Assembly: GCA_015655585.1 (NCBI GenBank)
Contig: JAATEV010000013.1
Location: 1-32,000 of the forward strand
Direction of reading: 5' to 3'
DNA: 32,000 bases
Source of the DNA: Terriglobales bacterium
Lineage (GTDB): Bacteria; Acidobacteriota; Terriglobia; Terriglobales; Acidobacteriaceae
Positions 6,161-24,244 of this stretch are shown here, in pieces. Numbering within the stretch: position 1 is the first letter of the stretch; each line of letters begins with the position of its first letter. The notes beneath the pieces are model-generated. The model made no database searches. It worked only from the letters and a program-made list of their open reading frames with translations, and was not told the DNA's origin. A program made the position numbers and the translations under genes.

Positions 6161-6174
6161 CGGCGTTTTGCTGC

Positions 6175-8409: not shown

Positions 8410-10331
8410 TGGCGGGACGCGGTTTGTGGAAGATGGCTGGGGTTGCACTTTTGACGGCTTTGCCGGTGTTGGCTGTGGCGCAGGCAGGTGGGGCGGCGGC
8501 CCCGTCGAATCCGCGGGCTGGATCGGATGATCCGCGTGTGGGGCTGAAGGCGGGATTGTATGATGCGGGCGAGGCACAGGCTGGGTTGGAGCGGCTGGTG
8601 TCGCTGCCGAAGCCGCCCTCGTTTAATCCGCCGCCGACTCCTCCGGCGAGCGCGGAGGGCGCGGCTGCGGCTCCGGCTGGGCTGGGGTATGCAAACTCGG
8701 ACATGGCGTTCGAGGGCAACCGCCTGTTTGTGGGGAACTATTACGGAGTGAATTTTTATGACATCTCTTCGCCGGAGAAGATTGGTCTGCTGACGTCGCT
8801 GGTTTGTCCGGGCGGGCAGGGCGATGTGTCGGTGTATGGGCATCTGCTGTTTATGTCGGTAGAGGCGGCGAACGGGCGGATGGATTGCGGAGTGCAGGGC
8901 GTGCCTCCTCCGGCGGGCTACCAGGCTCCGCCGCCGCTGACGGCTGCGGACAGGGCCGCGGGCAAGCGAGTGCCTCCGCCTCCGGCCAGCCCGGACCGGT
9001 TCCGTGGGGTGCGGATCTTCGACATCAGCGACCTGAAGAACCCGAAGCAGGTGGGTGCGGTGCAGTCGTGCAGAGGGTCGCATACGCATACGCTGGTGGT
9101 CGATCCGAAGGACAAGGACAATGTGTACCTGTACATCTCGGGTACGTCGTTTGTGCGGCAGGCGGAGGAGCTGGCGGGATGCTCGGGCGGCGATCCTAAG
9201 GACGATCCGAATACGTCGCTGTTCAGCATTGATGTGGTGAAGGTGCCGCTGGCGCATCCGGAGCAGGCGAAGATTGTGTCGAGCCCGAGGGTGTTTGCCG
9301 ATGACAAGACGGGCAATGTAAACGGCCTGTGGAACGGCGGCAATCATGGCGAGGGAACGCAGACGACCTCGCGGACGAATGAGTGCCACGATATTACGGT
9401 GTACTCGTCGCTGGGACTGGCGGCGGGGGCCTGCTCGGGCAACGGGATTCTGCTGGATATCAAGGACCCGGTGCATCCGGTGCGTATCGATGCGGTGAAC
9501 GATCCGAACTATGCGTTCTGGCACTCGGCTACGTTCAATAACGATGGCACGAGGGTGTTGTATACGGACGAGTGGGGCGGCGGCGTGCAGCCGAGGTGCA
9601 GAGAGACGGATCCGATGAACTGGGGCGCGGACGCGATCTTCAACCTCAATGGCAGGAAGCTGACGCTGGCGGGATACTACAAGATGCCGGCGGCTCAGTC
9701 GGAGAATGAGAACTGCGTGGCGCACAACGGATCGCTGATTCCAGTTCCGGGACGCGATATCGAGGTGCAGGCGTGGTATCAGGGCGGCGTGTCGATTGTG
9801 GACTTTACGGACCCGGCGCATCCGGTGGAGATTGGCTACTTCGACCGCGGGCCGATTGACGGCACGAAGAAGGTGACGGGCGGGTACTGGTCGGCGTATT
9901 GGTACAACGGCTATATCTACGGCTCGGAGATTGCCCGGGGCGTGGATGTGTTCAAGCTGGTGCCGAGCAAGTATCTTACGCAGAACGAGATTGATGCGGC
10001 TCGGGCGGTGCAGGTGGATTTGAAGAACGTGCAGAACCAGCAGAAGACTGTCTGGCCTTCGAGCCTGGTGGTGGCGAAGGCTTACGTGGACCAGTTGCAG
10101 CGAGGCGATTCGCTGGATGCAAAGCGGATTGCGGATTTGAACGATGCGATTGCGAACGCCGAGAGGTCGAACGAGAGCAAGAAGGACGTGGCCAAACTGA
10201 AGAAGCTGGCGTCGGGACTGGAGAAGGATGCCGGTTCGGCTAAGAGCCCGGCGGACGCGAAGAGGATGCGCGATCTGGCAGGGATTCTGAAGAAGCCTGC
10301 TCCTGTGAATGTTGCTATGGCGAAGCTCTAA
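8409..10331 (+). CDS. LVIVD-repeat beta-propeller protein, secreted, with Lys-rich helical tail
   Basis: Signal peptide. Repeated motifs of LVIVD type: LLFMSVE, VRIFDISDLKNPKQVG, ILLDIKDPVHPVRI, VSIVDFTDPAHPVEIGYFD, GVDVFKL. The ATG at 8409 shares 1 nt with the DUF305 TGA (alternative GTG 8406). Confidence 0.7.
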   Translation: MAGRGLWKMAGVALLTALPVLAVAQAGGAAAPSNPRAGSDDPRVGLKAGLYDAGEAQAGLERLVSLPKPPSFNPPPTPPASAEGAAAAPAGLGYANSDMAFEGNRLFVGNYYGVNFYDISSPEKIGLLTSLVCPGGQGDVSVYGHLLFMSVEAANGRMDCGVQGVPPPAGYQAPPPLTAADRAAGKRVPPPPASPDRFRGVRIFDISDLKNPKQVGAVQSCRGSHTHTLVVDPKDKDNVYLYISGTSFVRQAEELAGCSGGDPKDDPNTSLFSIDVVKVPLAHPEQAKIVSSPRVFADDKTGNVNGLWNGGNHGEGTQTTSRTNECHDITVYSSLGLAAGACSGNGILLDIKDPVHPVRIDAVNDPNYAFWHSATFNNDGTRVLYTDEWGGGVQPRCRETDPMNWGADAIFNLNGRKLTLAGYYKMPAAQSENENCVAHNGSLIPVPGRDIEVQAWYQGGVSIVDFTDPAHPVEIGYFDRGPIDGTKKVTGGYWSAYWYNGYIYGSEIARGVDVFKLVPSKYLTQNEIDAARAVQVDLKNVQNQQKTVWPSSLVVAKAYVDQLQRGDSLDAKRIADLNDAIANAERSNESKKDVAKLKKLASGLEKDAGSAKSPADAKRMRDLAGILKKPAPVNVAMAKL

Positions 10332-10352
10332 GAGTTCGTGGAGCTTTTTGGG

Positions 10353-10386
10353 AACCGGTCCTCTTTCGGGGGCCGGTTTTCTTTTG
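10353..10386 (+). terminator. Rho-independent terminator after the LVIVD gene
   Basis: Stem AACCGGTCC / GGGGCCGGTT (9 bp including one G-U), short loop, then TTTTCTTTT. Confidence 0.7.
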
Positions 10387-10413
10387 CATTGGGGAATGGT
10401 TTGCTCTGTGAAA

Positions 10414-10419
10414 TAGAAT
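10414..10419 (+). promoter_or_regulatory. -10-like hexamer TAGAAT, 7 nt upstream of the fbp ATG (possible leaderless start)
   Basis: TAGAAT-taaatgc-ATG. No SD in the spacer. No convincing -35. Confidence 0.25.
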
Positions 10420-10426
10420 TAAATGC

Positions 10427-11431
10427 ATGGCGATGATTACGACGGTGCAGCAGCATATCTTGCAGCAGCAGCAGGCTGCTTTGAAGGCTACGGGACGCGA
10501 GGCGTCGGGGACGTTTAGCTGGCTGTTGAGCGGGATTACGCTGGCCACGAAGATGGTGGAGGCGAAGATTCGCTCGGCTGGGCTGGGCGATGTGTATGGC
10601 GCGTTCGGCGCGGAGAATGTGCAGGGCGAACAGCAACAGAAGCTGGATGTGTATGCGAATCAGGCTCTGTTGCACTGCCTGGGGCTGCGGGACAGCGTGG
10701 CTGCGCTGGTGAGCGAAGAGGACGAAGAGCCGGTTACGTTCAACCGGGATGCGGAGACGGGGAAGTACATTATTGTGTTCGATCCGCTGGATGGGTCTTC
10801 GAACATTGATGTGAATGTGAATGTGGGGACGATCTTCAGCGTTCTGCGGAGGATGCCGGTGGAGATCGGCACGCTGGAGGAGTCGATTTTGCAGCCGGGG
10901 TTCCGGCAGGTGGCGGCGGGGTATGTGGTGTATGGGCCGTCGACGGTGCTGGTGTATACGACGGGGAACGGGGTGTTCGGATTTACGCTGGACCCGGCGA
11001 TTGGGGCGTTTGTGTTGAGCAACGACCGGATGACGATGCCGGAGCAGGGAAGCTACTACTCGGTGAACGAGGCGAATGCGGCGGGGTGGCCGGAGGAGTA
11101 TCGCGAGTATGTGGCGATGCTGCGTGAGGGTGGGCTGGGGAAGGAGTACAGCTCGCGGTATATCGGGAGCCTGGTGGCAGACTTTCATCGGACGCTGCTG
11201 AAGGGCGGAGTGTTTTTGTATCCGCCGACGCTGAAGCAGCCGAAGGGGAAGCTGCGGCTGTTGTATGAGGCGAATCCGCTGGCGTTTATCGCGGAGCAGG
11301 CGGGTGGAATGGCGACGAATGGAACGAAGAGGATTCTGGAGATCAAGCCGGAGGGGATCCATGAGCGGACGTCGTTCTGCGTGGGAAGCAAGCGGGAGAT
11401 GGAGGCTCTGATGGCGGTGGTGGGGAAGTGA
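10427..11431 (+). CDS. fbp: Class 1 fructose-1,6-bisphosphatase
   Basis: FDPLDGSSNIDVN metal-binding motif and GKLRLLYEANPLAFIAEQAGG; length 334 aa. Confidence 0.92.
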   Translation: MAMITTVQQHILQQQQAALKATGREASGTFSWLLSGITLATKMVEAKIRSAGLGDVYGAFGAENVQGEQQQKLDVYANQALLHCLGLRDSVAALVSEEDEEPVTFNRDAETGKYIIVFDPLDGSSNIDVNVNVGTIFSVLRRMPVEIGTLEESILQPGFRQVAAGYVVYGPSTVLVYTTGNGVFGFTLDPAIGAFVLSNDRMTMPEQGSYYSVNEANAAGWPEEYREYVAMLREGGLGKEYSSRYIGSLVADFHRTLLKGGVFLYPPTLKQPKGKLRLLYEANPLAFIAEQAGGMATNGTKRILEIKPEGIHERTSFCVGSKREMEALMAVVGK

Positions 11432-11679
11432 GCGAGTTTGAGGCAGTGGTGACGGACATCCGCGAAGAAAGGCGGGTGGAGGGACGACAGCGGTGGCAGA
11501 TGTCGCTGGACCGCACGGAGTTTGGCGCGGGGGCGGTGGGCGAGCTGGAGGCGGTGGCGAGGAGCGGGGCTCGGCTGGTGGTTCCGGTGCTGGCTACGGT
11601 TGTGGTGGATGGCGAGGTTTGGCACGTGGTGGAGAAGCCGTTGATGACGGGGACGGCGGTGACGGGACGCGTGGAGTGA
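11428..11679 (+). pseudogene. AlaX-L-type alanyl-tRNA editing protein, N-terminal beta-barrel portion only (83 codons)
   Basis: GTG overlaps the fbp stop (GTGA). SEFEAVVTDIRE ... LDRTEFGAGAVGE ... EVWHVVEKPLMTGTAVTGRVE follows the AlaX-L pattern FEATV...LDRT.FYP.GGGQ..D...G..V.G.ID. It stops where the HxxxH editing domain should begin, and the FYP/GGQ motif is degenerate. Confidence 0.45.
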
Positions 11680-11789
11680 TTTGGCAGAGCATTTCGGCTT
11701 TGAGTTGAAGGGGTGTTGCTGATACACTTGGTGATGTTGATCGGTAAGTGTTGCGCCCGCTGAAACGGTGTGCGATGCGCGATTGGTGG

Positions 11790-11865
11790 GGGGCTGTAGC
11801 TCAGTTGGGAGAGCGCCTCGTTCGCAACGAGGAGGTCAGCGGTTCGATCCCGCTCAGCTCCACCA
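11790..11865 (+). tRNA. tRNA-Ala (anticodon CGC), CCA encoded
   Basis: Manual cloverleaf: acceptor GGGGCTG/CAGCTCC with the G3:U70 Ala identity pair, D-arm GCTC/GAGC, anticodon stem CCTCG/CGAGG with loop TTCGCAA, T-arm AGCGG-TTCGATC-CCGCT, then ACCA. Confidence 0.93.
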
Positions 11866-11911
11866 TAGAAAACAAATCCTTAGATAGAAGATCCGGGGCC
11901 AAGAAGAGCCT

Positions 11912-11945
11912 GAAACAGCATGGAGCATACGCTGTTTCTTCGGTT
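11912..11945 (+). terminator. Hairpin plus T-rich tract downstream of tRNA-Ala
   Basis: 8-bp stem GAAACAGC / GCTGTTTC with 11-nt loop, followed by TTCGGTTCTT. It could also act for the convergent LysR gene. Confidence 0.4.
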
Positions 11946-12044
11946 CTTATGCTGTGTCTTCATGATTCATGAGGATAAGGGACGCCACTACTTTTGCTCT
12001 TACTTATCGCTTTCATCCCCTACAGTCATGCATCTCTGCGGTTC

Positions 12045-12959
12045 CTATCTGGGAATTTGGGATACGAGTTCGCTCACCCGCGAAAGAAACAGCTTCAAGA
12101 TGGGAGAAGGGTTCGCCTTGCGATAGCCGACCGATAGATCGATTTTTGGGCCCACACCTTCAAGAGGTCTGGTTACGACAGAAGCCGGAAGAAATGTCTT
12201 TGCGTAGAGGGGAAGAAGAGCAACGCCGCCGGTGGACGGGATGAGAGACATGACGCCGCCAAGATTATCGACCTCGTGGCTGGGCCTGATTTCAATGCCG
12301 CTGTCATGAAGAAACTTGTCGATTGCTCGACGTAGGGCTGGTTGCTTTCCGGAGATGCTGAGAGCTGTTCCAGAGATGCTGATGAAGGTCTCTCCTACTA
12401 GATCCTCAAGCCTGATTGCACTCCGCGTGGCGAGCGGATGATTCGAAGGCAGGAAGACCTCAAAAGATTCTTCGACAAGGGTTCGAAAGTCGAGCTCACT
12501 GCTGCCATCTTCCCTGCGAAGAAAGGCTATATCAATTCCTCCATGCAGGAGAGCGGTGGCGAGTTGAGGAGAGTTCTGCGTTGAGATCACTACGTGGATG
12601 TTTGGTAATTCGTCGCGGAGAAGTTTCAGGGCTCCGGGAAGCCATGTGTTGTCGTGGCCAATCATGAAGCCCAAGGCGAAAGAGGGTTTCGTCGGGAAGG
12701 CGATCTGCCGGGCGGATTGCACTGCTGCCTCTGCCTGAGAGAGCATGACTCGGGCGTGGTCCAGAAAGACTCGGCCTGCGGGCGTCAACTCGACGCCCTT
12801 CGCTCCTCTTACAAAGAGAGGCGTTCCCACTTCATCTTCAAGATCGCGGATCTGGCGACTTAAGGATGGCTGAGTTGTATGCAGCTTTTCTTCTGCTGCA
12901 AGCTTGAGGCTTCGTGCTTCGGCAACAGCGACGAAGTAACGAAGATGCCTGAGTTCCAT
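12045..12959 (-). CDS. LysR family transcriptional regulator
   Basis: N-terminal HTH MELRHLRYFVAVAEARSLKLAAEEKLHTTQPSLSRQIRDLEDEVG. Length 304 aa. Divergent from an SDR gene. Confidence 0.9.
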   Translation of the reverse strand: MELRHLRYFVAVAEARSLKLAAEEKLHTTQPSLSRQIRDLEDEVGTPLFVRGAKGVELTPAGRVFLDHARVMLSQAEAAVQSARQIAFPTKPSFALGFMIGHDNTWLPGALKLLRDELPNIHVVISTQNSPQLATALLHGGIDIAFLRREDGSSELDFRTLVEESFEVFLPSNHPLATRSAIRLEDLVGETFISISGTALSISGKQPALRRAIDKFLHDSGIEIRPSHEVDNLGGVMSLIPSTGGVALLPLYAKTFLPASVVTRPLEGVGPKIDLSVGYRKANPSPILKLFLSRVSELVSQIPR

Positions 12960-13160
12960 GTGTCACCTCTGCCCGGAAAGCATACCCCCTCAGCCTACAA
13001 AGCAATTTTACAGAGGAGATTTCGAGGCTATGTTCAGAGAAACTGTTCCTTCGACAGCGGAGATATCGCCGGAGCGTGGAGCCAGTATGACTCTGCTTGT
13101 TCCTAAACCTCTCTTCGCTTTGTTGAAGAACATCATTCGTCTGTAGAAAGGTGGAGACTT

Positions 13161-13904
13161 ATGTCTCAGTCATTGAAGGGAAAAGTTGCGCTGGTAACGG
13201 GTGGATCGCGTGGGATTGGCGCAGCAATCGCAAAACGGCTGGCCGCAGATGGAGCCAGCGTCGCTATCACGTATGCAAGGGATGCTAACTCAGCCTCTGT
13301 TGTGATTAAGACGATTGAGGATGCGGGCGGAAGAGCAGTTGCGATCCAGGCGGACGCGGCTTCGCCCGAAGCGGTCCGGGCTTCGGTCGAGAATGTGGTA
13401 GCTGCGCTGGGGAAGCTGGATGTTCTTGTGAACAATGCAGGCACAGCCATTCCAAAGCCATTTCTAGAGGCAACGCTGGAAGAGATGGACCAGATCATCA
13501 ATCTGAACATCCGCGGAATGTTTGTCACGACGCAGGCGGCCTTGAAGCACATGAATGATAACGGCCGGATCATCATGATCGGTTCGTGTGTTGGGGAACG
13601 CAACCTGACGCCGGGGCTGGCGGCCTATGCGGCGACCAAGGGCGCTGTGAAGATGTTTGCCCAGAGCTTGTCCAGAGAGGTTGGGGATCGAGGCATCACG
13701 GTTAACAACGTACAGCCGGGGCCGATCGATACGGACCTCAATCCTGCTGGCGGCGATTGGGCAGCTCCTCAAAAGGCGGTTACAGCGCTTAACCGTTACG
13801 GGCGTGTCGATGAGGTTGCCGCGCTGGTCGCATTTATCGCCAGTCCGGAATCTGCGTACATCACCGGGGCGAATCTGACTGTGGATGGCGGGACGAACGC
13901 CTGA
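13161..13904 (+). CDS. Short-chain dehydrogenase/reductase (FabG-like)
   Basis: TGGSRGIG cofactor motif, NNAG, catalytic YAATKGAVK. SD GGTGGAG lies upstream. Confidence 0.9.
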   Translation: MSQSLKGKVALVTGGSRGIGAAIAKRLAADGASVAITYARDANSASVVIKTIEDAGGRAVAIQADAASPEAVRASVENVVAALGKLDVLVNNAGTAIPKPFLEATLEEMDQIINLNIRGMFVTTQAALKHMNDNGRIIMIGSCVGERNLTPGLAAYAATKGAVKMFAQSLSREVGDRGITVNNVQPGPIDTDLNPAGGDWAAPQKAVTALNRYGRVDEVAALVAFIASPESAYITGANLTVDGGTNA

Positions 13905-13911
13905 GCAGTAC

Positions 13912-13955
13912 GGCCTCCTCGGCTATGGAGCTGAGGAGGCTGTCTCCTTGTTTTC
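13912..13955 (+). terminator. Hairpin downstream of the SDR gene
   Basis: GGCCTCCTCGGCT-atgg-AGCTGAGGAGGC, about 12-bp stem. The T tract TTGTTTT begins 7 nt after the stem. Confidence 0.5.
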
Positions 13956-14050
13956 ATTCGTTGCTCAAAAGAAAAGAAGGATGAAACTTCAAGAATAAGA
14001 TTGGTCTTGTGATGGGCACATCTGGCTGGATGGGATCGTGTGGAGTGGAG

Positions 14051-14917
14051 CTACCTGTAGGCCGCGTAGTAATACGAGACCGGTCCTGCCAGGCGTCTTT
14101 CATAGTGTTCGTGCGGCATGTGTACTGATTCTGAGCTGCCTAACATGAGGACTCCGCCTGGCTGTAAGACCTTGCGGATAGATGAAAAGATTGCATCCTT
14201 CGTCTTCCGATCGAAGTAGATCAGCACGTTTCTACACAGCACCAGATCGAAGAGACCAAGCTCCGTCATATCTCCGCGCAGGTCGAACGGTTCAAAGCGG
14301 ACCATCTCACGAATGCTTTTCTTCACCCTCCAGTCTGGGCCATCGCGGACGAAGTGGCGAGCCAGCGCATGAGCCGGGAGACCGCGGCTGATCTCGAACT
14401 GGATGTATCGGCCGCTTCTGGCCCTGTTCAGCATCTTTGTCGAGATGTCCGTTCCGAGAATCTCTACCTCCGAAGACGGAATGTTCATATCCTGAAGCAT
14501 CATTGCCAGGCTGTATGCTTCCTGTCCGGACGAAGAGGCCGCAGACCATATTCGAAGCTTGCGCCTGAAGCGCCTTTGTTCGAGGATGGCTGGAATAATC
14601 TGGCTACGCAGAGCCTCGAACACCGTATTGTCTCTGAAGAAGAGCGTCTCGTTGGTCGTCATTGCATCGACGATCTCCTGGATCAGATGCGAGCCTTTTT
14701 CCGCGCGCAGATGACGGCAGAGATCATCGAGCGTCTCCAGATTTAACTGCTGCACGAGAGGAAGCAACCTTGACTCCAGCAGGTAATGCTTATCTCCATC
14801 GAGGACAATGCCGGAGTTCTCATAAATGTACTGCTGCATGTATGTGTAGCTCTGCGGGGAGATTTTAGCCTCTACCGCGGGATGACGACGCTCTGCACGG
14901 ACGCTGGTGTTGGTCAT
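14051..14917 (-). CDS. cheR: Chemotaxis protein methyltransferase
   Basis: TNETLFFRD, SAM box IWSAASSSGQEAYSLAM, CRNVLIYF. The ATG at 14917 lies 2 nt after the cheB stop. Track start 15088 is trimmed. Confidence 0.9.
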   Translation of the reverse strand: MTNTSVRAERRHPAVEAKISPQSYTYMQQYIYENSGIVLDGDKHYLLESRLLPLVQQLNLETLDDLCRHLRAEKGSHLIQEIVDAMTTNETLFFRDNTVFEALRSQIIPAILEQRRFRRKLRIWSAASSSGQEAYSLAMMLQDMNIPSSEVEILGTDISTKMLNRARSGRYIQFEISRGLPAHALARHFVRDGPDWRVKKSIREMVRFEPFDLRGDMTELGLFDLVLCRNVLIYFDRKTKDAIFSSIRKVLQPGGVLMLGSSESVHMPHEHYERRLAGPVSYYYAAYR

Positions 14918-14919
14918 CT

Positions 14920-16050
14920 TCAAAGGGCCGTCTGCACTTGTCTCAAGATGCACGGGACAATCTCGTCCAGCCCCAGAACTGCATCTGCAAGTCCTGCGTT
15001 GGCAACGGCTCCGGGCATTCCCCATACCACGCTGGACTCGGCATCCTGAGCGATGATGCGGGCTCCGTTCTGCTTCAGCATGTCGCATCCGTTCAATCCG
15101 TCCTTGCCCATGCCGGTAAGAACTACGGCGATCACATCGCCTCCATAGACCTCGAAGATAGAGCGGAAGAGCACATCGACCGATGGCCGGCAGGAGTTCA
15201 CCGGAGCATCCTGGTTCAGGGCGATGGTGACTCCCTGTGGCTTGCGAACGGTGGTCATGTGATAGTTTCCGGGAGCGACGAGAGCCATTCCTGGAGCGGC
15301 GATCATCCCTTCGGTCGCTTCACGGACTTTGATCCTGCACTGTCCGTCGAGCCTTTCTGCAAGGAGCCGGGTAAAGAGCGGCGGCATGTGTTGAACGATG
15401 TAGATCGGTAGAGGGAAGTTCTCAGGGAATTGCGGCATCACCTGCGCGAGCGCCGTGGGGCCGCCGGTTGAGACTCCGATCACTACAGCCCTGATATGGA
15501 TGCGCCGTAGACTTCTTGGCGGAGCAACGGATGGCCTGATTGGCTGGCTGGCAGTCTGCCGGAAGCGTCTGCGCAGGGCTATGCTTTTTATCTTGGGAAG
15601 AAGCTCATCGCGCAGACTGGCAAGTGTGTCGTCGAGCTTGCCATCGTTCGATGACTTGGCTACATAATCGCTTGCTCCCAGCATCAGCGCGTTGATTGTA
15701 GCTGCGGCTCCGCGGTTGGTCAGCGTGCTGAACATGATGACTCTGATATGAGAGAAGCGCGGACGCATCTGGCGGAGTGTTTCGATGCCATCCATCAGGG
15801 GCATCTCCACATCCATAGTGACGACATCCGGCGCGACCTTCTCCATCATTTCAAGAGCTGCGATTCCATTTCTGGCCTCACCGACGACTTCCAACTCCTC
15901 GTCCGTACCAATCATCCTGGTGATGAGGCGGCGAATCACGAGAGAGTCATCGACGACCAGAACCCGGATTTTATTTGCCCGAGACGCCATCGTCCCGGAG
16001 CCCGTCGTTGAATTCATAGAATTCGTCGAACTGGTAAAGCTATCGATCAC
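14920..16050 (-). CDS. cheB: Chemotaxis response regulator protein-glutamate methylesterase
   Basis: Receiver IRVLVVDDS ... TMDVEMPLMDG ... YVAKS, and esterase triad boxes GVSTGGP, VQHMP, GMGKDG. GTG 16050 follows AGAGGAAG; internal ATGs at 16017 and 15990 are alternatives. Confidence 0.9.
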   Translation of the reverse strand: MIDSFTSSTNSMNSTTGSGTMASRANKIRVLVVDDSLVIRRLITRMIGTDEELEVVGEARNGIAALEMMEKVAPDVVTMDVEMPLMDGIETLRQMRPRFSHIRVIMFSTLTNRGAAATINALMLGASDYVAKSSNDGKLDDTLASLRDELLPKIKSIALRRRFRQTASQPIRPSVAPPRSLRRIHIRAVVIGVSTGGPTALAQVMPQFPENFPLPIYIVQHMPPLFTRLLAERLDGQCRIKVREATEGMIAAPGMALVAPGNYHMTTVRKPQGVTIALNQDAPVNSCRPSVDVLFRSIFEVYGGDVIAVVLTGMGKDGLNGCDMLKQNGARIIAQDAESSVVWGMPGAVANAGLADAVLGLDEIVPCILRQVQTAL

Positions 16051-16061
16051 GTTCTTCCTCT

Positions 16062-16178
16062 CTACCCCTGCGGCAGTATGCCCATCAGCCGAAGCTTCCC
16101 TATCACCATATCGGCCGTAAACGGCTTCATCAGATACTCGTTGGCCCCCGCGCTCAACGCTTGCGTCACTCTCTTCAT
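16062..16178 (-). pseudogene. C-terminal stub of a CheY-type receiver (38 codons; alpha4-beta5-alpha5 only)
   Basis: My own translation, absent from the track: MKRVTQALSAGANEYLMKPFTADMVIGKLRLMGILPQG. It matches the AGA-x-Y-l-x-KPF end of receivers. No DD pocket, phospho-Asp or Thr region is present in any frame of 16179-16229. Confidence 0.6.
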
Positions 16179-16229
16179 CGCTCTCCCTGGATGGAATCGT
16201 GATGCTGCATCATGCCTTGCTGCAAGGCT

Positions 16230-16697
16230 CTAATGACAGGCTCGCCGCAAGACGCACTGCGTATTCAGCACAAGCATCAGGCGGTCATCGAAACGATAGA
16301 CGCCCTCGATCATCTCTTTCCGCTCCTGCGGCATATTGTCGGGCGTGGGCTCATACGATCCGACCGGAACATCCAGCACATCGCCAATGCTATCGACCGA
16401 CAGGCTCACCACTCCATCCTCTGAACGGATGACGATATTCATCTCCTGCTGATCCTCTGGGAGCGGGCCTATGCCCAGACTTCTTCTTGCATTGATGGCA
16501 GTTACAATCTGGCCGCGCAGGTTGATCAGCCCCTGGATGACCGAGGGTGCAAGCGGAACCTCGGTCATCTCCTGATAGCGAATGACCTCTTGTACCTTGA
16601 CGACCTCGATCCCAAGGAACAGGTCTCCTACGTGGAATGTTGCGTACTGCTTTGTCGTGTTCTCGCTCTGCATGGATGCCGGCTCATAGTGGTTCAT
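16230..16697 (-). CDS. cheW: Chemotaxis coupling protein
   Basis: 155 aa. FHVGDLFLGIEVVKVQEV ... GLINLRGQIV ... typical CheW fold motifs. The ATG overlaps the cheA stop (ATGA). Confidence 0.9.
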   Translation of the reverse strand: MNHYEPASMQSENTTKQYATFHVGDLFLGIEVVKVQEVIRYQEMTEVPLAPSVIQGLINLRGQIVTAINARRSLGIGPLPEDQQEMNIVIRSEDGVVSLSVDSIGDVLDVPVGSYEPTPDNMPQERKEMIEGVYRFDDRLMLVLNTQCVLRRACH

Positions 16698-19336
16698 CGG
16701 GAGACTCCTACGGCGGAAGACCCATGCAATGTTCTGATGGAGGCGTCTCCGGCCAGATCTTTCATCGTCTGCAACAAGGCGTCACGATCGCCTCTGGGAA
16801 TCCAGGCATCGAATCCATAGGAGCCCAGTCCTTGTGGAGGCACCGCGGCCATCAGCACCTTATCGAGCAGCGCTACCACTGGAATCGATGCGGCTCCGCT
16901 CTTTTCACGAACCGCAGCGATCAGAGTCTGTGACTCCTTGCCGAAGGGATTGAGTCCCGTGGCGATTACTTCGGCCGTCTGCTGGAGAAGAAATGCCTGC
17001 GCCTCCGGCCAGGTCGCAGCCTCGTAGACGCGGTAGCCGGTTATTTCGAGATAGCTGCGCAGGAGCTCACGTACAGTCGATGAGGGGTCCACGATCAGCA
17101 CGCGTGCGGCATCCACCTTCGGAGTATCGGGATTCAGCAGCCAGTCATCGCCACAGATCTTCACGATCGTGTGCAGGTCGATCAGATCGGTTACCTTGCC
17201 TCCGATTACGGCAGAGCCGAGAAGCCCTCGCGCAGCGCCAGAGACTTTGACGGCAACAGTGTCCTCGATGATGTCTTCGATGTGATCGACAACGAGACCG
17301 ATGCTTCTTTGGCCATAGGCGAAGACAATGACGTACAGATCCTCCTGTTCGAAGCTTGTGTCTTTTCGCGTGCTGTCGAGCACGCTGGCCAGTGATATCA
17401 GAGGGAGGATGTTGTCGCGATAATGAATCACCGGAGCGCCGGAGGCGTATTCCATACGATTACGATCGAACTTTTCAAGACGCGCCACGGTGGAGAGTGG
17501 AACAGCCACGCGTTGGAATCGTCCTGCGCGAAACAGGAGAAAGCGCTGCTGTGCGGCGGCCTGAGGCGCTGCGGGCTTCTCTTTTCTTCCTGCGGATTGC
17601 CTTGCTTGTGGAACGATTCCAGCCAGCCGTGCTAATCCGGATACATCCAGGATGAGAGCGATCTTTCCATCGCCCATGATGGTCGCTCCCATGTAACAGC
17701 TCAGTCCGCGTAGCTGCTTGCCCAGAGGCTTCACCACGATCTCCTGCGTATCGCAGATGTCGTCGACGACGAGCCCAAGCTGCCGGTCTTCTGCCTGAAG
17801 CAAAACGATATTCACTACGTTATGGCTGTTGGGGGTAGTCCGGCCAAAGACCTGGCTCAGATAGATGAGCGGAAGCAGCTTGCCGCGATGATGATAGACG
17901 GCGGTTCCATGAACCGACTCGATCCTCTTGATCTGCTCCGGCCCCTCCAGTCGCACCAGCTCCAACAGGCTCGTCTGCGAGATGACGAATCTTTGCTCCC
18001 TCTTTCCATCCTGCCCGTTCAACGTAACGACCAGACCGGGAATAATCGCCAGCGTCAGCGGAATCTTGATGCGAACGGTGGTGCCATGTACCGGCTGATT
18101 GAAGACATCGACCGATCCGCCGATCCGTTCGATGTTGGTGCGAACCACGTCCATGCCAACGCCGCGACCGGAGATGCTCGTAATCTTCTCCGCGGTAGAA
18201 AATCCGGGATGGAAGATTAGCTGAATGGCTTCGGCGTCGCTCATGCTTGCAGCTTCTTCGGGGCGCAGCAGACGCTTCTCGATCGCCTTCCTACGGATCT
18301 TGTCCGCATTGATGCCGGCGCCATCGTCCGACATCATGATGTTCACGTGTCCACCCTCGTGATAGGCACGCAGGGAGATCTTCCCCTGAGGGCTCTTGCC
18401 TTTATGGATTCTTACATCCGGAAGCTCGATGCCGTGATCGCAGGAGTTGCGGACGATGTGGGTCAACGGGTCTTTGATGGCCTCGATCACGGTCTTGTCC
18501 AGCTCCGTACCGGCGCCCTCCATCTCGACCATGATCTTCTTTCCGCACTCGGAGGCGATGTCGCGGACTACGCGCGGCAGCTTGTTCCACACCACGCCGA
18601 TGGGCTGCATCCGCGTCTTCATGACGCCTTCCTGAAGCTCGCTGGTAATCAGGTTCAGGCGCTGGGTTGTGCCGTTGATCGCCGAATTGAGGACTGCCGT
18701 GTCCTGCAGCAACTGGTTCCGCGCAAGCACCAGTTCTCCCACCAGGTTCATCAGCTTGTCGAGCAGAGCTACATCCACGCGGATGGTCGAATCCGAGGCG
18801 AGGCTGGTTTTGGACTCGGATTCTCCAGTCGAAACTGCAACTCCTTCGTCTGAATCTTCCGAGGAGGCTGCCTGCGCCGAGTACGATAACACCTCCGGCT
18901 CAACCATCTTTGCCGCATCAGTCTGGAGTGTTGGGGCCGGTGTCTGGATGGGTTCCCTACTGTAGGCATCTTCCAGTTTTTTACGCAGCGGCTGGTAGAT
19001 GTCTGCACCTTCCGTACCCGTGTTCTCGATTGAACGCAGGATCTTCCTTACGGCGTCCACTGTTTCAAGGACGAGGGAGATCAGCTCCGGCGTTACCTCT
19101 CTCTGCTTCTCCCGCGCCTGGCTCAGAAGATTTTCAGCGATATGGCTGATGGAGCCGAGGATGGAGAAATCAAAGAACCCGCACGTCCCCTTGATGGTGT
19201 GGATCGTGCGAAAGATGCTCGCGATCAGCTTCTCGTCGCGTGGATTTCGCTCCAGCTCAACGATCTCCAGATCCAGAGTCTCCAGGTTCTCGTTGCTTTC
19301 GATCAGGAAATCTTTTACGTCTTCGTCCAAGACCAT
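16694..19336 (-). CDS. cheA: Hybrid chemotaxis histidine kinase: Hpt-dimerisation-HATPase-CheW-CheW-degenerate receiver, no P2 domain
   Basis: H box FRTIHTIKG, N box HIVRNSCDHGIE, G1 DDGAG, G2 GRGVGMD. Two CheW-like segments (about residues 435-575 and 600-735). C-terminal 136 aa are receiver-like but lack key residues. SD GAGAGGGG precedes the ATG. Confidence 0.9.
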   Translation of the reverse strand: MVLDEDVKDFLIESNENLETLDLEIVELERNPRDEKLIASIFRTIHTIKGTCGFFDFSILGSISHIAENLLSQAREKQREVTPELISLVLETVDAVRKILRSIENTGTEGADIYQPLRKKLEDAYSREPIQTPAPTLQTDAAKMVEPEVLSYSAQAASSEDSDEGVAVSTGESESKTSLASDSTIRVDVALLDKLMNLVGELVLARNQLLQDTAVLNSAINGTTQRLNLITSELQEGVMKTRMQPIGVVWNKLPRVVRDIASECGKKIMVEMEGAGTELDKTVIEAIKDPLTHIVRNSCDHGIELPDVRIHKGKSPQGKISLRAYHEGGHVNIMMSDDGAGINADKIRRKAIEKRLLRPEEAASMSDAEAIQLIFHPGFSTAEKITSISGRGVGMDVVRTNIERIGGSVDVFNQPVHGTTVRIKIPLTLAIIPGLVVTLNGQDGKREQRFVISQTSLLELVRLEGPEQIKRIESVHGTAVYHHRGKLLPLIYLSQVFGRTTPNSHNVVNIVLLQAEDRQLGLVVDDICDTQEIVVKPLGKQLRGLSCYMGATIMGDGKIALILDVSGLARLAGIVPQARQSAGRKEKPAAPQAAAQQRFLLFRAGRFQRVAVPLSTVARLEKFDRNRMEYASGAPVIHYRDNILPLISLASVLDSTRKDTSFEQEDLYVIVFAYGQRSIGLVVDHIEDIIEDTVAVKVSGAARGLLGSAVIGGKVTDLIDLHTIVKICGDDWLLNPDTPKVDAARVLIVDPSSTVRELLRSYLEITGYRVYEAATWPEAQAFLLQQTAEVIATGLNPFGKESQTLIAAVREKSGAASIPVVALLDKVLMAAVPPQGLGSYGFDAWIPRGDRDALLQTMKDLAGDASIRTLHGSSAVGVSR

Positions 19337-19354
19337 GACGACCTGCCCCTCTCG

Positions 19355-20128
19355 TTACACGCCTTCTCTTGCAGAACAGCACGTCCTTCCATGCCTAAAG
19401 CGGACGCGGTGATGTTCGGAATCTCTCCAGATGCAGACAGGAACGCACTCTATCGAGCTGACGGATAAATCCTTTAGAGAGCTCTCCTGTGAGCCGTGAA
19501 TGGCTGGAGATAACGGCACCGAGAGGTTTGCGGTTTTGGAGACGGCGTCGACCACCTTGCCCACCGAAGCGTCAAAGTCCGCTGCGAGCTCGGCCAGTTT
19601 CTTGTCGTAGGTGTTCTTGTTCTCTTCGATATAGATGGAGATTGCGAGGTCCATGTCCAGCATGATGGCCTGGGTGACGGCACGTATCATTTTGTTTGCC
19701 TTCTGCTGTCCCTCTTCCGGCGAGATTCCATTGCTATAGCTGTACCGGGTGATCGCGGCAAAGATGAAGTTCATGGTGAAGGTATAGCCGCCGATGTACC
19801 AACTGGGCTCAAGACCGATGCGGCTGTGCGTCAGGCCGATCTTGCGTACCGAGGCCACGTAACTCTCGTCGAAGCGGCCGGAGAAGAGGTTACGCCAGTG
19901 GCGTCCCTGGGCCTCGCGGGCGTGCGCCATGACCGCTTTGATACGCTCCGGCTCGGTTCCAAACATTCTGATCAGCTCAGGCCAGCGCCCCACATGGGCA
20001 TAAAAGCTCTCGAGCGCCTGAGGCAGCACCTCTTCAATGACAGGGAGAACCTCCTGCAGGGCAGAACGGGTTTCCTCGTTGACTGCAAGGAAATCAAGAC
20101 GGTTTTGAATCGCCAGATTCGTCGACAT
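19355..20128 (-). CDS. Sensor globin (protoglobin / HemAT-type heme domain) with truncated transducer tail
   Basis: ESFYAHV (B10 Tyr position) and KIGLTHSRIGLEPSWYIGGY (proximal His motif) match globin-coupled sensors. After about residue 170, LAADFDASVGKVVDAVSKTANL resembles the start of an MCP signalling module. The ORF ends 18 nt before cheA. Confidence 0.75.
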   Translation of the reverse strand: MSTNLAIQNRLDFLAVNEETRSALQEVLPVIEEVLPQALESFYAHVGRWPELIRMFGTEPERIKAVMAHAREAQGRHWRNLFSGRFDESYVASVRKIGLTHSRIGLEPSWYIGGYTFTMNFIFAAITRYSYSNGISPEEGQQKANKMIRAVTQAIMLDMDLAISIYIEENKNTYDKKLAELAADFDASVGKVVDAVSKTANLSVPLSPAIHGSQESSLKDLSVSSIECVPVCIWRDSEHHRVRFRHGRTCCSAREGV

Positions 20129-20476
20129 CTAAAGCCTCACGCGAAATGAAATTGGCCATATTTTGCGGAGGATCGATGCTTCATCCATGCGCCCGAATAC
20201 GTGCCACACAGACGATATCGTCAGGTTGAAAAAAAACCTTACGGGGTGGGGGTGGTAGATTTTTTTCTGTTTCGTCGTCCAAAGGGAGGTTTGGTACGTC
20301 TTTGTTGGATATCGACGCTATTTTGAGTGGTTGCATCGTGGTTTTGTGTGGGTGGAATGTGGCTGATTGGCGGCTGGGAAGGGTGGACTGACGGAAAATG
20401 TAGCGAACCTTAAGAAAACGTGAAATGATGAAGAACTCAAAATGAGAATTGATTCCCAAATTCATAGGAGAGACGT

Positions 20477-22420
20477 GTGAAAGCTGATCGGCGGCAGATT
20501 CTTAAGAGTGGTGTAGCTATTTTGGGCGCAGGTGCGCTGAACGCGCAGGAGTTATTTGGACAGGCCCGTCCAGCGGCGAAGGCGGCGGCGCATTCGGCGT
20601 CGAACTGTGCCTGTGAGACGGCGGCGGACGGATCGCCTCTGGATACGGGAACCAGCGAGATTGCTCCGGTTGTGGAGCGTTACCAGGTGGAACTGGCGGA
20701 CCTGAACCGTATCTTCCTGCCGGGTTCGGCGCTGCATCAGTCCAAGGTCGAGGCGTTTTATACCGGCCAGTTGCATCTGCTGGAGACGATCAACTTTGAC
20801 GCTCTCAGCCGGTCGGGCAAGGTGGATTACCTGTTGCTGCGCGCCAGGCTGTTGCAGGAGCAGAAGCAGTTGGCCGAGGATGCCAAGCAGGATGCCGAGG
20901 TTGCGGCGATTCTGCCGTGGCAGCAGGACGTATTCGGGCTGGAAGAGGCCCGGCGGCGTATGGATACGCTGGATGCGAAGAAGGCCGCGGCCACGCTGTC
21001 GGCGCTGACGACGAAGCTTGTTGCGGCCAAGCCGCCTGCCGGAGCGAACCCTGCGGTGCTGGGTCGGTCGGCTTCGCGGGTGCAGGAACTGCGGGGAGTT
21101 TTGCAGGAGTGGAACACGTTTTATGCGCTGTACGATCCGAGCTACGCGTTCTGGGTCTCTGAGGAGCTGAAGCGCACGGACGCGGCCCTGGGCAAGTATG
21201 CCGAGGCGCTGTTTGCCGCTTCGGGAGCGCCGGGGACTCTGGAGCCGGTTCCGAGCCTGCGTGGCGTTCCGGGCGGCGCAGCGGCTGGCGGCCGTGGCGG
21301 GCCGGGTGGCCGGGGCGGTGCGGCGGCTGGACGTGGCGCGGCTGGCGGTCGTGGACGGGCGCGCAGCAATGCTCCGCTGGGCAGCGAGGAGGAGATTGCC
21401 GGTATCGGACCGGTGGGCAGCGAGGCGCTGACGGCAGAGCTGCGCCAAGCATGGATTCCTTATACGCCGGAGGAGCTGATTGTGCTGGCGAACAAGGAGT
21501 TCGACTGGTGCGATAAGGAGATGCTGAAGGCAACGGCGGAGATGGGCTTTGGCACGGACTGGAAGGCCGCGCTTGAAAAGGCGAAGAACGACTATGTTGA
21601 GCCGGGCAAGATGATCTACTGGGTCCGCGACAATGCTCGGGACGCCGTTGCCTTTATGGAGGCCCATGAGGTGCTGACGATCCCGGCAGGGGTGAAGCAG
21701 GACTGGTGGGAACAGGCGATGACTCCGCAGCAGCAGTTGGTCAACCCGTTCTTTACGGGGGGCGCTACGATCCAGGTCTCTTCGCCGGCCAGCAGCATGA
21801 CGTATGAGGAGAAGCTGGCCAGCCAGCGCGCCAACAACATCTACGAGGGCTATGCCACGGTGTTCCACGAGCTGGTTCCGGGGCACCACATGCAGGGCTA
21901 CATGAGCGCCCGCTACCGCACGTACCGCCGCGGCTTTGCCAGCGCTGGGCCGTTCTGGAGCGAGGGCATGGCATTCTACTGGGAGATGCTGATGTGGGAC
22001 CTGGGATGGTTCCGCACGCCGGAGCAGCGCGTGGGTGCGTTGTTCTGGAGGAAGGAGCGTTGCGCGCGCATCATCTTCTCGGTGAACTTCAACCTGAAGA
22101 AGATGACGGCCCTGGAGTGCGTGAAGTTCCTGATGGATCGCGTGGGGCATGACCGTCCCAGCGCCGAGGGCGAGGTGCGCCGTTCATTCAACGGATCGTA
22201 CTCGCCGATCTACCAGTGCGCTTATATGCTGGGCGCGTTGCAGTTCTATGCGCTGCACAAGGAACTTGTGGGAGGGGGCAAGATGTCGAATCGCCAGTTC
22301 CACGATGCGTTCTATCGCGAGGGCAATATGCCAATCGAGATGGTGCGCGCCGCGATCTCGGAGGTTCCGCTCACCCGGGATTACCAGAGCAAGTGGAAGT
22401 TCTACGGCAACCTTAGCTAA
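20477..22420 (+). CDS. DUF885 family protein (HExxPGHH metallo-motif), TAT-exported, with Gly/Arg/Ala insert
   Basis: GTG start after AGGAG. Twin-arginine leader KADRRQILKSGVAILGAGA. HELVPGHHMQ motif. Confidence 0.8.
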   Translation: MKADRRQILKSGVAILGAGALNAQELFGQARPAAKAAAHSASNCACETAADGSPLDTGTSEIAPVVERYQVELADLNRIFLPGSALHQSKVEAFYTGQLHLLETINFDALSRSGKVDYLLLRARLLQEQKQLAEDAKQDAEVAAILPWQQDVFGLEEARRRMDTLDAKKAAATLSALTTKLVAAKPPAGANPAVLGRSASRVQELRGVLQEWNTFYALYDPSYAFWVSEELKRTDAALGKYAEALFAASGAPGTLEPVPSLRGVPGGAAAGGRGGPGGRGGAAAGRGAAGGRGRARSNAPLGSEEEIAGIGPVGSEALTAELRQAWIPYTPEELIVLANKEFDWCDKEMLKATAEMGFGTDWKAALEKAKNDYVEPGKMIYWVRDNARDAVAFMEAHEVLTIPAGVKQDWWEQAMTPQQQLVNPFFTGGATIQVSSPASSMTYEEKLASQRANNIYEGYATVFHELVPGHHMQGYMSARYRTYRRGFASAGPFWSEGMAFYWEMLMWDLGWFRTPEQRVGALFWRKERCARIIFSVNFNLKKMTALECVKFLMDRVGHDRPSAEGEVRRSFNGSYSPIYQCAYMLGALQFYALHKELVGGGKMSNRQFHDAFYREGNMPIEMVRAAISEVPLTRDYQSKWKFYGNLS

Positions 22421-22430
22421 TTGACGGAGA

Positions 22431-22482
22431 GCGCCCGCTGGTCTGCCCCTAAGTATGGACTTGGGGGTTGGTCGGCGGGCGC
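22431..22482 (+). other. Two-tier GC-rich hairpin downstream of the DUF885 gene
   Basis: Outer stem GCGCCCGC (22431-38) / GCGGGCGC (22475-82). Inner stem CCCC(T)AAGT-atgg-ACTTGGGG (22446-66). No T tract. Confidence 0.35.
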
Positions 22483-22551
22483 GATTCGCAGTAGTCTGAG
22501 TCCTAGAGTCTTGGATTCTTAGAGTCTGGGAGTCGTAGAGGAAGATAACGA

Positions 22552-23136
22552 ATGTTGCGTGAGGACGGCGTCAGGATCATCCGCAGCAGGACGCCGGAGT
22601 CGGCGGCCATGTCGGCAAATGTGAAACGGGCGATGGCGATGACCGCCAGACTGAACCGGTTGACGTTTGAGGATGCGGATGAGGTTCGAGCCTTGTTCAG
22701 CGAACTTATCGGTAAAAAAGTAGACGAGAGCTTTTTGCTGATTCCGCCGTTCTATACGGCGGGTGGGGACGAGATCCGCGTGGGGCGGAATGTTTTCGTG
22801 AATCAGAACTGCACGTTCTATGACCTTGGCGGCCTGGACATTGCGGACGATGTGATGATCGGGCCGAACGTGAGCCTCATCACGACGGGCCATTCCCTTG
22901 AACCTTCCGAACGCCGCTCCGTCACAATCGGAAGGCCGATTGTGATTGAGAGAAATGTATGGATTGCAGCGGGCGCAACGGTCATTGGCGGGGTGACTGT
23001 TGGGGAGAATTCGGTGGTAGCTGCGGGAGCGGTCGTCACGAAGGATGTTCCGCCGAATACTCTGGTTGGAGGAAATCCGGCGCGGGTGATTCGTTCGATT
23101 GGCGATGAGGGAAGAAGCATCGATCCGGGAGAGTGA
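22552..23136 (+). CDS. Sugar O-acetyltransferase (maltose/galactoside acetyltransferase-like, left-handed beta-helix)
   Basis: Mac-type N-terminus, hexapeptide repeats (IGPNVSLIT, IERNVWIAAGATVIGGVTVGENSVVAAGAVV), GGNPARVIR. SD GAGGAAG. Confidence 0.8.
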   Translation: MLREDGVRIIRSRTPESAAMSANVKRAMAMTARLNRLTFEDADEVRALFSELIGKKVDESFLLIPPFYTAGGDEIRVGRNVFVNQNCTFYDLGGLDIADDVMIGPNVSLITTGHSLEPSERRSVTIGRPIVIERNVWIAAGATVIGGVTVGENSVVAAGAVVTKDVPPNTLVGGNPARVIRSIGDEGRSIDPGE

Positions 23137-23188: not shown

Positions 23189-23217
23189 GCCGGACTTATC
23201 TGAGGTCCGGCGTTTTT
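23189..23217 (+). terminator. Rho-independent terminator after the acetyltransferase gene
   Basis: 9-bp stem GCCGGACTT / AGGTCCGGC (one G-U), 5-nt loop, then GTTTTT. Confidence 0.7.
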
Positions 23218-23243
23218 GCATGGCACGGCAGAGGAGGAGAGAT

Positions 23244-24104
23244 ATGGCGCCGCAGGTTAGCTTCGATGGGTTGAGGGTGCTTTCGCTGGAGTCGCGGAGA
23301 GCGGTGGAGGTGGAGAAGCTGATCCGGACGTATGGCGGGGAGCCGTTTGTTGCGCCGTCGATGCGCGAGGTGCCGCTGGAGTCGAATACGGTGGCTCTGG
23401 AGTTTGCCGGGCGACTGTTGCAGGGGGAGTTCGATCTGGTGGTGTTTTTTACCGGGGTGGGGCTGCGGGCGTTGTTGCAGATTGTGGAGACGAAGTATGA
23501 GCGGGAGGCGTTTCTGGAGGCCTTGCGGAAGGTGAAGATTGCGGCGCGTGGGCCGAAGCCTTTGGCGGTGATGCGCGAGGTTAACTTGCAGGCGGAGGTG
23601 ACGGCTCCGGAGCCGAATACGTGGCGGGAGTTGCTCGCTGCGCTGGATGAGAAGTTCGGCGGAGAACTGCGCGGGTTGCGGGTGGCGGTGCAGGAGTATG
23701 GGGCTTCGAATGTAGAGTTTCTGGAGGCCCTGAAGCAGAGGGGCGCGGTGGTGACGCAGGTTCCGGTGTACCAATGGGCTCTGCCGGAGGACGTTGGGCC
23801 GCTGCGGGAGAGCGTGCAGAGGATTGCGAGTGGGAAGGTGGATGTTCTGCTGCTGATGACGGCGGTGCAGGTGGTCCATCTGTTCCAGATTGCGCGGGAG
23901 CTGGGGCGCGAGGATGAGCTGCGGGCAGGGTTGGCTGCGATTGTGGTGGTGTCGATTGGGCCGACGACGACGGAGGAGCTGGGGAGGTATGGGTTGAAGC
24001 CGGACTTTGAGCCCTCGCACCCGAAGATGGGGTTCATCGTGAATGAGGCGGCCCAACATGCGGACAGGCTGTTGAAGGAGAAGACTGCGGCCCGGTCGCT
24101 TTGA
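23244..24104 (+). CDS. hemD: Uroporphyrinogen-III synthase family protein
   Basis: LRVLSLESRRAVEVEKLIRTYGGEPFVAPSM and a second half-domain ... VVSIGPTTTEELGRYG, as in HemD-like proteins. ATG 23244 follows GAGGAGGAG. The ATG at 23220 abuts the terminator. Confidence 0.6.
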   Translation: MAPQVSFDGLRVLSLESRRAVEVEKLIRTYGGEPFVAPSMREVPLESNTVALEFAGRLLQGEFDLVVFFTGVGLRALLQIVETKYEREAFLEALRKVKIAARGPKPLAVMREVNLQAEVTAPEPNTWRELLAALDEKFGGELRGLRVAVQEYGASNVEFLEALKQRGAVVTQVPVYQWALPEDVGPLRESVQRIASGKVDVLLLMTAVQVVHLFQIARELGREDELRAGLAAIVVVSIGPTTTEELGRYGLKPDFEPSHPKMGFIVNEAAQHADRLLKEKTAARSL

Positions 24105-24186
24105 GGTAGCTGCGGCTTTGGCCGCGATAGGTTGGTGGGATTTTTCTTCTGAAGAGGGTGGGTGATTCTCCTGCTGGATGCGGGCT

Positions 24187-24213
24187 TATTCCTGTGCGCC
24201 TTTTTGCCGATAA
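24187..24213 (+). promoter_or_regulatory. Sigma-28 (FliA)-type -10 box GCCGATAA with poor -35
   Basis: Perfect GCCGATAA at 24206-24213. The tetramer 15 nt upstream is TATT (2/4 versus TAAA). Confidence 0.3.
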
Positions 24214-24244
24214 GGGTTCCAACGCGAACCGGTTCTCGGGGGAT

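Follow-up and report, generated by a model that had tools for sequence, protein, structure and literature searches.

Does a cluster of chemotaxis genes that encodes neither a receptor with a signalling domain nor a complete CheY define a novel type of chemosensory system, or does it contain the remains of a familiar one? This question is raised by a stretch of 32,000 nucleotides from a Terriglobales bacterium of the family Acidobacteriaceae (contig JAATEV010000013.1, positions 1 to 32,000, hereafter called the window), whose minus strand carries six closely packed units in the order globin open reading frame (ORF)-cheA-cheW-38-codon ORF-cheB-cheR. An earlier note on this DNA had offered two readings, a pathway caught in decay and a rewired system in which a stand-alone sensor globin would signal to the kinase by way of additional modules, and had assumed that neither architecture would correspond to a described chemosensory class. 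The locus defines no new chemosensory class and represents a broken version of an operon type that is already well described. We assign a probability of about 0.8 to an interpretation where it constitutes a degraded and probably horizontally acquired copy of the common acidobacterial F5-type operon with the organization cheA-cheW-mcp-cheY-cheB-cheR, where mcp stands for the gene of a methyl-accepting chemotaxis protein (MCP).

The order of the six units and the spacings that were initially described (18 nucleotides (nt), an ATGA overlap, 51 nt, 11 nt and 2 nt) were all reproduced when verified from the sequence, and the receptor signalling domain MCPsignal (PF00015) was found to be absent across the entire 32-kb window. 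A first lesion is manifested in the interval between cheW and cheB. The 38-codon ORF located in this interval matches only positions 84-109 of the 111 positions of the Pfam family Response_reg, and its product aligns to the last ~36 residues of the ~124-residue CheY proteins encoded in 11 related operons, with 50-61% identity. The aligned part of these proteins is their C-terminal 'AL-AGANEY-MKPFT' end, with the acidic pocket, the phosphorylated aspartate and the threonine being gone from the stub. The translation of the 51-nt spacer that separates this ORF from cheW shows no alignment to CheY.

For comparison, 80 genome loci were identified by means of the CheA alignment. In these relatives, operons with an extended form of CheA are organized as cheA-cheW-[one or more MCPs]-cheY-cheB-cheR, with an MCP gene following cheW in 12 of 12 cases where at least 3.9 kb of sequence is available downstream of cheA. 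A linked MCP is found in 41 of the 45 loci with good flanks and, among these 45, none of those having both CheB and CheR lacks CheY, while three have no linked MCP within 7 kb. Together, the gene order of the relatives and the partial alignment of the stub indicate that, in the window, the interval between cheW and cheB lacks one or several MCP genes and ~87 codons of cheY. Since the stub occupies the canonical position of cheY, the operon would formerly have been of ordinary layout. As judged from these alignments, the 38-codon ORF is a pseudogene remnant of cheY, as had been anticipated in the earlier note. Neither a full receptor gene nor a full cheY would fit into the available space, which rules out small frameshifts as cause of their absence.

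Intact operons of this kind from Terriglobia and Bryobacterales (L006-L018, L049, L077 and L080, with the Acidisarcina polymorpha CheA P0135 as an example) share with the window the architecture of CheA and the gene order cheA-cheW-...-cheY-cheB-cheR, and their CheA, CheW, CheB and CheR proteins are 47-59% identical to those of the window. Unlike the window, they contain at least one MCP gene and a cheY encoding ~124 residues between cheW and cheB, and in none of those examined is cheA preceded by a truncated globin. In the closest relatives with respect to CheA (L086 and L093, 72-75% identity), a gene begins ~40 nt after cheW, and in L087 (62% identity) cheW is followed by a gene encoding a PAS domain. 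A scan of metagenomes for closer relatives yielded only L093 (75% identity), a 2.8-kb sequence that terminates just after cheW. Nucleotide alignments of the spacer following cheW and of the region upstream of cheA with L086 and L087 did not locate the breakpoints. We found no repeats or ends of insertion sequences at the deletion junctions and no remnant of an insertion sequence in the window, and a scan for promoters and terminators gave no signal exceeding the expectation from shuffled sequence.

Two observations on the related loci deserve mention. The contigs L086 and L093, although originating from different samples, end at the identical nucleotide, 20 nt into the gene following cheW (L086 3608-3628, L093 2757-2777), a coincidence suggesting that assemblies break there at a receptor gene that is repeated or hypervariable. 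In L033 (7001-13389), which is part of a metagenome-assembled genome (MAG), cheA, cheY and cheB appear split or frameshifted, which may reflect errors in sequencing or assembly, and this locus was left out of the count of degraded relatives.

The second lesion affects the globin ORF at the opposite end of the cluster. Protoglobin is the sole Pfam domain detected in its product (E 7e-39, residues 6-171) and, when aligned to HemAT (PDB 1OR4), this domain is found to have kept the proximal-histidine motif H-x-R-I-G-L-x-P-x-W-Y and the heme-pocket motifs. In a comparison with a profile of 95 full-length globin-coupled MCPs, the match is confined to profile positions 1-195 of 449 and stops at residue ~201 (window ~19526), within the first helix of the transducer module, which bears out the initial estimate that ~25 residues of the MCP module remain. 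Beyond this residue, no homology to receptors was detected in any frame up to cheA, neither in a profile search with all filters off nor with tblastn. The GC content at the three codon positions amounts to 0.57/0.39/0.74 in codons 1-201 compared to a flat 0.52/0.54/0.57 in codons 202-257, and the tail of the ORF thus resembles a read-through into non-coding DNA.

The distribution of homologues is in line with a truncation. Among 395 globin homologues, the 257-residue form of the window is a singleton cluster. Over residues 1-201, it is 62% identical to the 444-residue protein P0002, and the next-best homologues, with identities of 62%, 59%, 52% and below, are full globin-coupled receptors. The named and top-ranked homologues are mostly 444-450 residues long and contain PF00015, the exception being P0003 with 397 residues, and shorter entries mostly come from very short contigs. 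Receptors of the HemAT type, which include B. subtilis HemAT and the ~450-residue 'globin-coupled sensor protein' of Alphaproteobacteria and other groups, share the sensor globin fold and the heme-pocket motifs with the window protein, which is 52-62% identical to its full-length homologues over residues 1-201. They differ from the window copy, which lacks PF00015 (~250 residues) and instead contains a 56-residue non-homologous tail. On the basis of these comparisons, the globin ORF is best described as a pseudogene remnant of a receptor gene. Its closest homologues are orphan genes at other loci, none of which adjoins cheA, and one close homologue is found in a mobile context together with an integrase, TraG and a toxin-antitoxin pair. 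The proposal in the earlier note that decay would be settled if relatives were intact at the same positions and this genome held the sole degraded copy applies to cheY, whereas for the globin it applies only in modified form, its relatives being intact but residing at other loci. A literature search on truncated globin sensors located next to CheA returned nothing relevant.

Several alternative histories of the globin ORF were considered and rejected. The survival of an MCP C-terminus out of frame (the 'LTGELSKGFIRQL' resemblance) is unsupported by a full-length profile search with filters off. An internal deletion within the gene that would have retained the 3' end of the globin receptor was rejected in the absence of a 3' profile match. 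The idea that a resident globin-MCP gene had been interrupted by the che cluster was rejected in the absence of a 3' receptor fragment downstream of cheR. We also rejected a tandem duplication or circular permutation of an ancestor with the order cheA-cheW-globinMCP-cheY, as found in L011 and L013. Such single-event models are disfavored because the window globin is only 26-28% identical to the globins of L011 and L013 and because there is no cheW or other che remnant upstream of the globin. In both of these loci, a longer globin-containing MCP is located between cheW and cheY (L011 4589-6526, L013 10278-12341), which indicates that globin-coupled receptors are native to this type of operon.

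We next turn to CheA, whose architecture had contributed to the impression of novelty. In Pfam searches, the protein contains Hpt, H-kinase_dim and HATPase_c domains and two CheW stretches. A match to Response_reg remains below threshold (16.6 bits compared to a cut-off of 30.2), and the C-terminal region concerned is collinear with that of homologues that pass PF00072, such as P0122 (72% identity). The CheA homologues listed, which align across the full length of the protein, range from 773 to 980 residues and originate from sources including Acidisarcina polymorpha and MAGs of Acidobacteriaceae, Granulicella and Bryobacterales. The second CheW domain and the receiver-like domain are collinear in all of 18 aligned CheAs, and the 120 proteins listed are, in length and Pfam content, consistent with a form containing two CheW domains and a degenerate receiver. 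In the 18-sequence alignment, the window CheA has kept all of ~300 invariant columns, including H46 in the Hpt domain and the kinase boxes.

Across the Terriglobia branch, the receiver-like domain is devoid of the canonical phospho-accepting aspartate, the threonine and the lysine, and in the window CheA and its nearest relatives P0122 and P0123 'LNP' replaces 'LDL'. Since the pseudo-receiver is common to the branch and 'LNP' is shared by the nearest relatives, these features are ancestral and not a sign of recent decay and, as the second CheW domain and the pseudo-receiver both occur in intact operons, they do not constitute adaptations to the loss of a receptor. The initial description of a second CheW and a receiver-like domain was therefore correct, whereas the statement that the latter lacks every residue for phospho-transfer went too far, as the window protein retains one acidic residue (VDPS). 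Similarly, of the three features proposed for a test of conservation in relatives, the pseudo-receiver is conserved, whereas the short globin and the cheY stub are singletons. Of the two initial readings, decay is hence supported for the two truncated genes, whose relatives are intact and whose window copies are singletons, whereas rewiring finds no support in the extra modules of CheA, which are family-wide features of intact operons.

With respect to CheA, the notion of an undescribed class was wrong, as its architecture matches the published F5 organization. About 8% of CheAs carry two CheW domains and nearly all of these are members of class F5, which is also among the classes having a CheY-like domain at the C-terminus of CheA (Berry et al., PMC10782961). 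The window CheA appears F5-like, a class assignment that is based on architecture alone. With characterized F5 systems (Azospirillum brasilense Che1, Rhodospirillum centenum Che1 and the CheA of Azorhizobium caulinodans), it shares the Hpt, dimerization and ATPase domains and the two CheW domains as well as, putatively, a C-terminus of the receiver type, and in both cases no P2 domain was detected and cheW, cheY, cheB and cheR are part of the operon. In contrast to these systems, the receiver of the acidobacterial branch lacks the phospho-accepting aspartate, the threonine and the lysine and, compared to the F5 core set of MCP, CheA, CheW, CheY, CheB and CheR, the window is incomplete, with the MCP gone and cheY cut to 38 codons.

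The surroundings of the cluster point to its origin. The alignment with contigs of relatives of the host (L088-L091) ends at position 11870, next to a gene for tRNA-Ala(CGC), which in these relatives is followed by the nuo operon and in the window by a LysR gene, a short-chain dehydrogenase/reductase (SDR) gene and the che cluster. In E. bradus (L092 13454-14964), an integrase, an HTH_17 excisionase-like gene and DNA of ~0 skew come directly after the same tRNA, and the tRNA-Ala(CGC) site downstream of the gene for fructose-bisphosphatase (FBPase) appears to be a hotspot of integration for this lineage. The flanking housekeeping genes of the window (ispD, ispF, peptidases, FBPase, hemD and protoporphyrinogen oxidase) include an FBPase that is 89-91% identical to Edaphobacter proteins. 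Between these flanks, the GC skew drops to ~0 from the ~+0.3 of the host and the GC content to 0.54-0.57 from 0.61-0.65. At third codon positions (GC3), the skew of the che genes ranges from -0.17 to +0.11, compared to +/-0.5 to 0.74 in the flanking housekeeping genes.

In the host-like DNA (window 1-11800 and 23200-32000), the strong overall skew of ~+0.3 is independent of gene orientation, with GC3 skews of +0.5 to +0.74 in plus-strand genes and of -0.57 to -0.70 in genes on the minus strand, among them that of an M24 peptidase. Against such a strong strand asymmetry, foreign DNA stands out readily. The Edaphobacter-like relatives L088 and L092 share the high skew; no specific account of GC skew in Edaphobacter emerged from a literature search. 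On the right side, the end of the segment is blurred by the genes of a DUF885 protein and a hexapeptide transferase, which are of intermediate skew, with the value of the DUF885 gene falling between those of the host and the che cluster.

The combination of a tRNA site, a shift in composition and the loss of synteny suggests that the che segment was acquired by horizontal transfer, and on this basis we regard it as the probable remnant of a genomic island. Its location directly 3' of a tRNA, its distinct composition and its absence from the same site in close relatives are also hallmarks of known tRNA-linked islands, although, in contrast to typical cases, the window contains no integrase, excisionase or direct repeats and the right boundary is undefined. 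The earlier note had not caught that the segment is tRNA-linked and compositionally foreign. The described features are listed in Table 1.

Table 1. Positions of the described features within the window.
Feature	Position	Strand	Remarks
tRNA-Ala(CGC)	11790..11865	+	detected by ARAGORN and Rfam; left boundary of the segment, probable integration site
Segment of low GC content and near-zero GC skew	11866..20200	.	contains LysR, SDR, che cluster and globin fragment; right end could reach ~23200
cheR	14051-14917	-	last unit of the cluster
cheB	14920-16050	-	2 nt gap to cheR
38-codon ORF (cheY stub)	16062-16178	-	11 nt gap to cheB
51-nt spacer, putative deletion junction	16179..16229	-	in relatives, at least one MCP gene and the 5' two-thirds of cheY are located here
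cheW	16230-16697	-	51 nt gap to 38-codon ORF
cheA	16694-19336	-	880 residues; ATGA overlap with cheW
Globin ORF	19355-20128	-	257 residues; 18 nt gap to cheA
Putative read-through tail of globin ORF, codons 202-257 and stop codon	19355..19525	-	no receptor homology in any frame
5' part of globin-coupled chemoreceptor gene, codons 1-201	19526..20128	-	globin domain intact, followed by first ~25 residues of transducer module
CheY-like single-domain response regulator	24253-24717	+	Pfam Response_reg E 7e-26; in host-like DNA
CheX phosphatase	24759-25265	+	Pfam CheX E 1e-17; follows CheY-like regulator

Taken together, these features would be accounted for by the following course of events. A single deletion in an ancestral full operon would have taken all of the sequence that begins just behind cheW and ends at codon ~88 of cheY, and with it the receptor gene or genes of the operon and the phospho-accepting part of CheY, leaving a 38-codon tail that would start with ATG by chance. 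A second truncation would have removed the signalling domain of an unrelated globin-coupled chemoreceptor gene, of which the 5' 45% is left and whose reading frame would now extend over 56 non-coding-like codons until a stop codon that is met by chance 18 nt ahead of cheA. The island, residing in an Edaphobacter-like genome, would have since lost its integrase and be in the process of eroding. The additional CheW domain and the pseudo-receiver of CheA represent ancestral family traits. The genes cheA, cheW, cheB and cheR are still intact, whereas the self-contained pathway would presumably no longer be functional. In this sense, the locus would provide an example for the erosion of a gene cluster after its probable horizontal transfer into a soil acidobacterium, and we propose that the globin ORF and the 38-codon ORF be annotated as pseudogene fragments.

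Several observations weigh against this interpretation. We have found no ancestral or sister genome with an intact operon at the exact site, and the deletions are thus deduced from relatives at 50-75% identity rather than observed directly. No integrase was detected among the scanned ORFs of the window and no excisionase is left, nor was a second copy of the tRNA 3' end, as expected for an att repeat, found when allowing for up to three mismatches. The close homologues of the globin fragment are orphan genes elsewhere and do not account for its position upstream of cheA. The two assemblies in which the junctions were found (see below) may stem from identical reads. The remaining points concern the state of the pathway. 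The four remaining genes are free of any lesion over 5.1 kb, in three related loci encoding CheB and CheR no MCP is found within a distance of 7 kb, and an intact CheY/CheX pair is encoded nearby, so that decay may be too strong a term for the pathway.

Latter points are captured in a rival explanation, to which we would give odds of roughly one in three and where the two truncated genes are dead but CheA, CheW, CheB and CheR are maintained as a module that uses receptors encoded elsewhere and the nearby CheY and CheX. It overlaps with the preferred decay of an acquired operon in its account of the origin and differs only with respect to present function. In its favor, cheA, cheW, cheB and cheR show neither frameshifts nor stop codons and residues that are invariant in the respective families are all kept. 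CheW is intact (Pfam CheW E 7e-28) and 72-78% identical to the CheW proteins of L086, L087 and L093. CheB, with receiver and methylesterase domains matched by Pfam at full length, retains every invariant column in an alignment of 10 sequences (DD34-35, D80, K132, the serine in GVSTGGP, the histidine in QHMP and the aspartate in GMGxDG), and CheR, with CheR_N and CheR matched at full length, all 74 invariant columns in an alignment of 8 sequences. The initial impression that CheB and CheR look intact is hereby confirmed, whereas the accompanying demand for a methyl-accepting substrate had overlooked receptors encoded elsewhere as possible partners, and the three related loci mentioned above indicate that unlinked receptors are normal.

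A further argument for a retained module comes from the CheY-like regulator and CheX at 24253-25265. The regulator, located 4.1 kb beyond the start of the globin ORF on the opposite strand, is complete with respect to its DD pair, the aspartate in 'SDINMP', the threonine and the 'KPF' motif. The earlier statement that there is no intact CheY consequently holds for the operon but not for its neighborhood. The presence of this regulator together with CheX, which the earlier note had missed, implies that the host possesses output components of the chemotaxis type, which makes a residual function in trans conceivable and the pair a possible partner of CheA. CheY/CheX pairs of this kind are also associated with che operons in other Terriglobia (such as L032), and CheX-like genes are found in several other loci.

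Conversely, the regulator and CheX show the composition of the host (GC3 skews of +0.57 and +0.58), which is not the case for the che cluster and which argues against a co-evolution of the two. The regulator is 38% identical to E. coli CheY, 55% to a regulator located beside a CheX-like gene in L032 and only 37-45% to the cognate CheYs in the operons of the relatives. Moreover, an MCP and a cheY of its own are retained in every extended-CheA operon amenable to checking. On balance, we lean towards the four intact genes being functionless or on their way out, with somewhat less than even odds for their continued operation in trans with receptors and CheY/CheX encoded elsewhere. If they turn out to be expressed and to work with the receptors and CheY/CheX of the host, the locus would represent a partial chemosensory module grafted onto a resident pathway.

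It could also be suspected that the truncations are artefacts of assembly or binning, in which collapsed or chimeric metagenomic contigs conceal a genome with a full receptor and a full cheY. The sequence is a metagenome-assembled contig with abrupt changes in composition at ~11.8 kb and ~20.2 kb, and receptor signalling domains are repeated and hard to assemble, as illustrated by the breaks in L086 and L093. We nevertheless consider this explanation very improbable. A Logan contig of 9938 nt (SRR10968246) is 100% identical over window positions 12929-22866, spanning both junctions and the right-hand change in composition, and their reproduction by a second assembler makes a misassembly unlikely. 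The junctions are located outside of conserved receptor sequence and are not flanked by repeats. Finally, the left composition boundary is found within 5 nt of the tRNA 3' end, at the position where synteny with the host relatives also ends, which is a biological signature and not one of assembly.

Hardly credible, in our view, is a rewired system, in which the 257-residue globin would serve as stand-alone heme sensor for oxygen or redox state that acts on CheA via its second CheW domain or the pseudo-receiver, turning it into a receptor-less oxygen-responsive kinase with output to CheB, a distant regulator or the nearby CheY/CheX: although the globin domain is intact with its heme-binding motifs kept, is encoded in the orientation of cheA and 18 nt upstream of it and has counterparts in receptors of this operon type (L011 and L013), the arrangement is a singleton, the globin stops inside the first helix of the transducer module with its last 56 codons looking non-coding, intact operons having normal MCPs also contain the second CheW and the pseudo-receiver, which are thus no substitute for a receptor, L086 as closest relative with respect to CheA contains no globin within 366 nt upstream of cheA, and the cheY stub at its canonical position testifies to a once ordinary layout.

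Outside of the che cluster, several long ORFs of the window (8406-10331 on the plus strand, 7606-8577 and 25452-28156 on the minus strand), including one of 641 residues, show no meaningful relationship to a Pfam family. Three are without any match, and a partial match of 25452-27209 to PS-DH (19.9 bits) remains below the cut-off of 23.7. In this GC-rich and skewed DNA, some of these long family-less ORFs may be spurious. The DUF885 protein (20477-22420, plus strand) contains a low-complexity insert rich in glycine, alanine and arginine at residues ~255-300 (…GGAAAGGRGGPGGRGGAAAGRGAAGGRGRA…).

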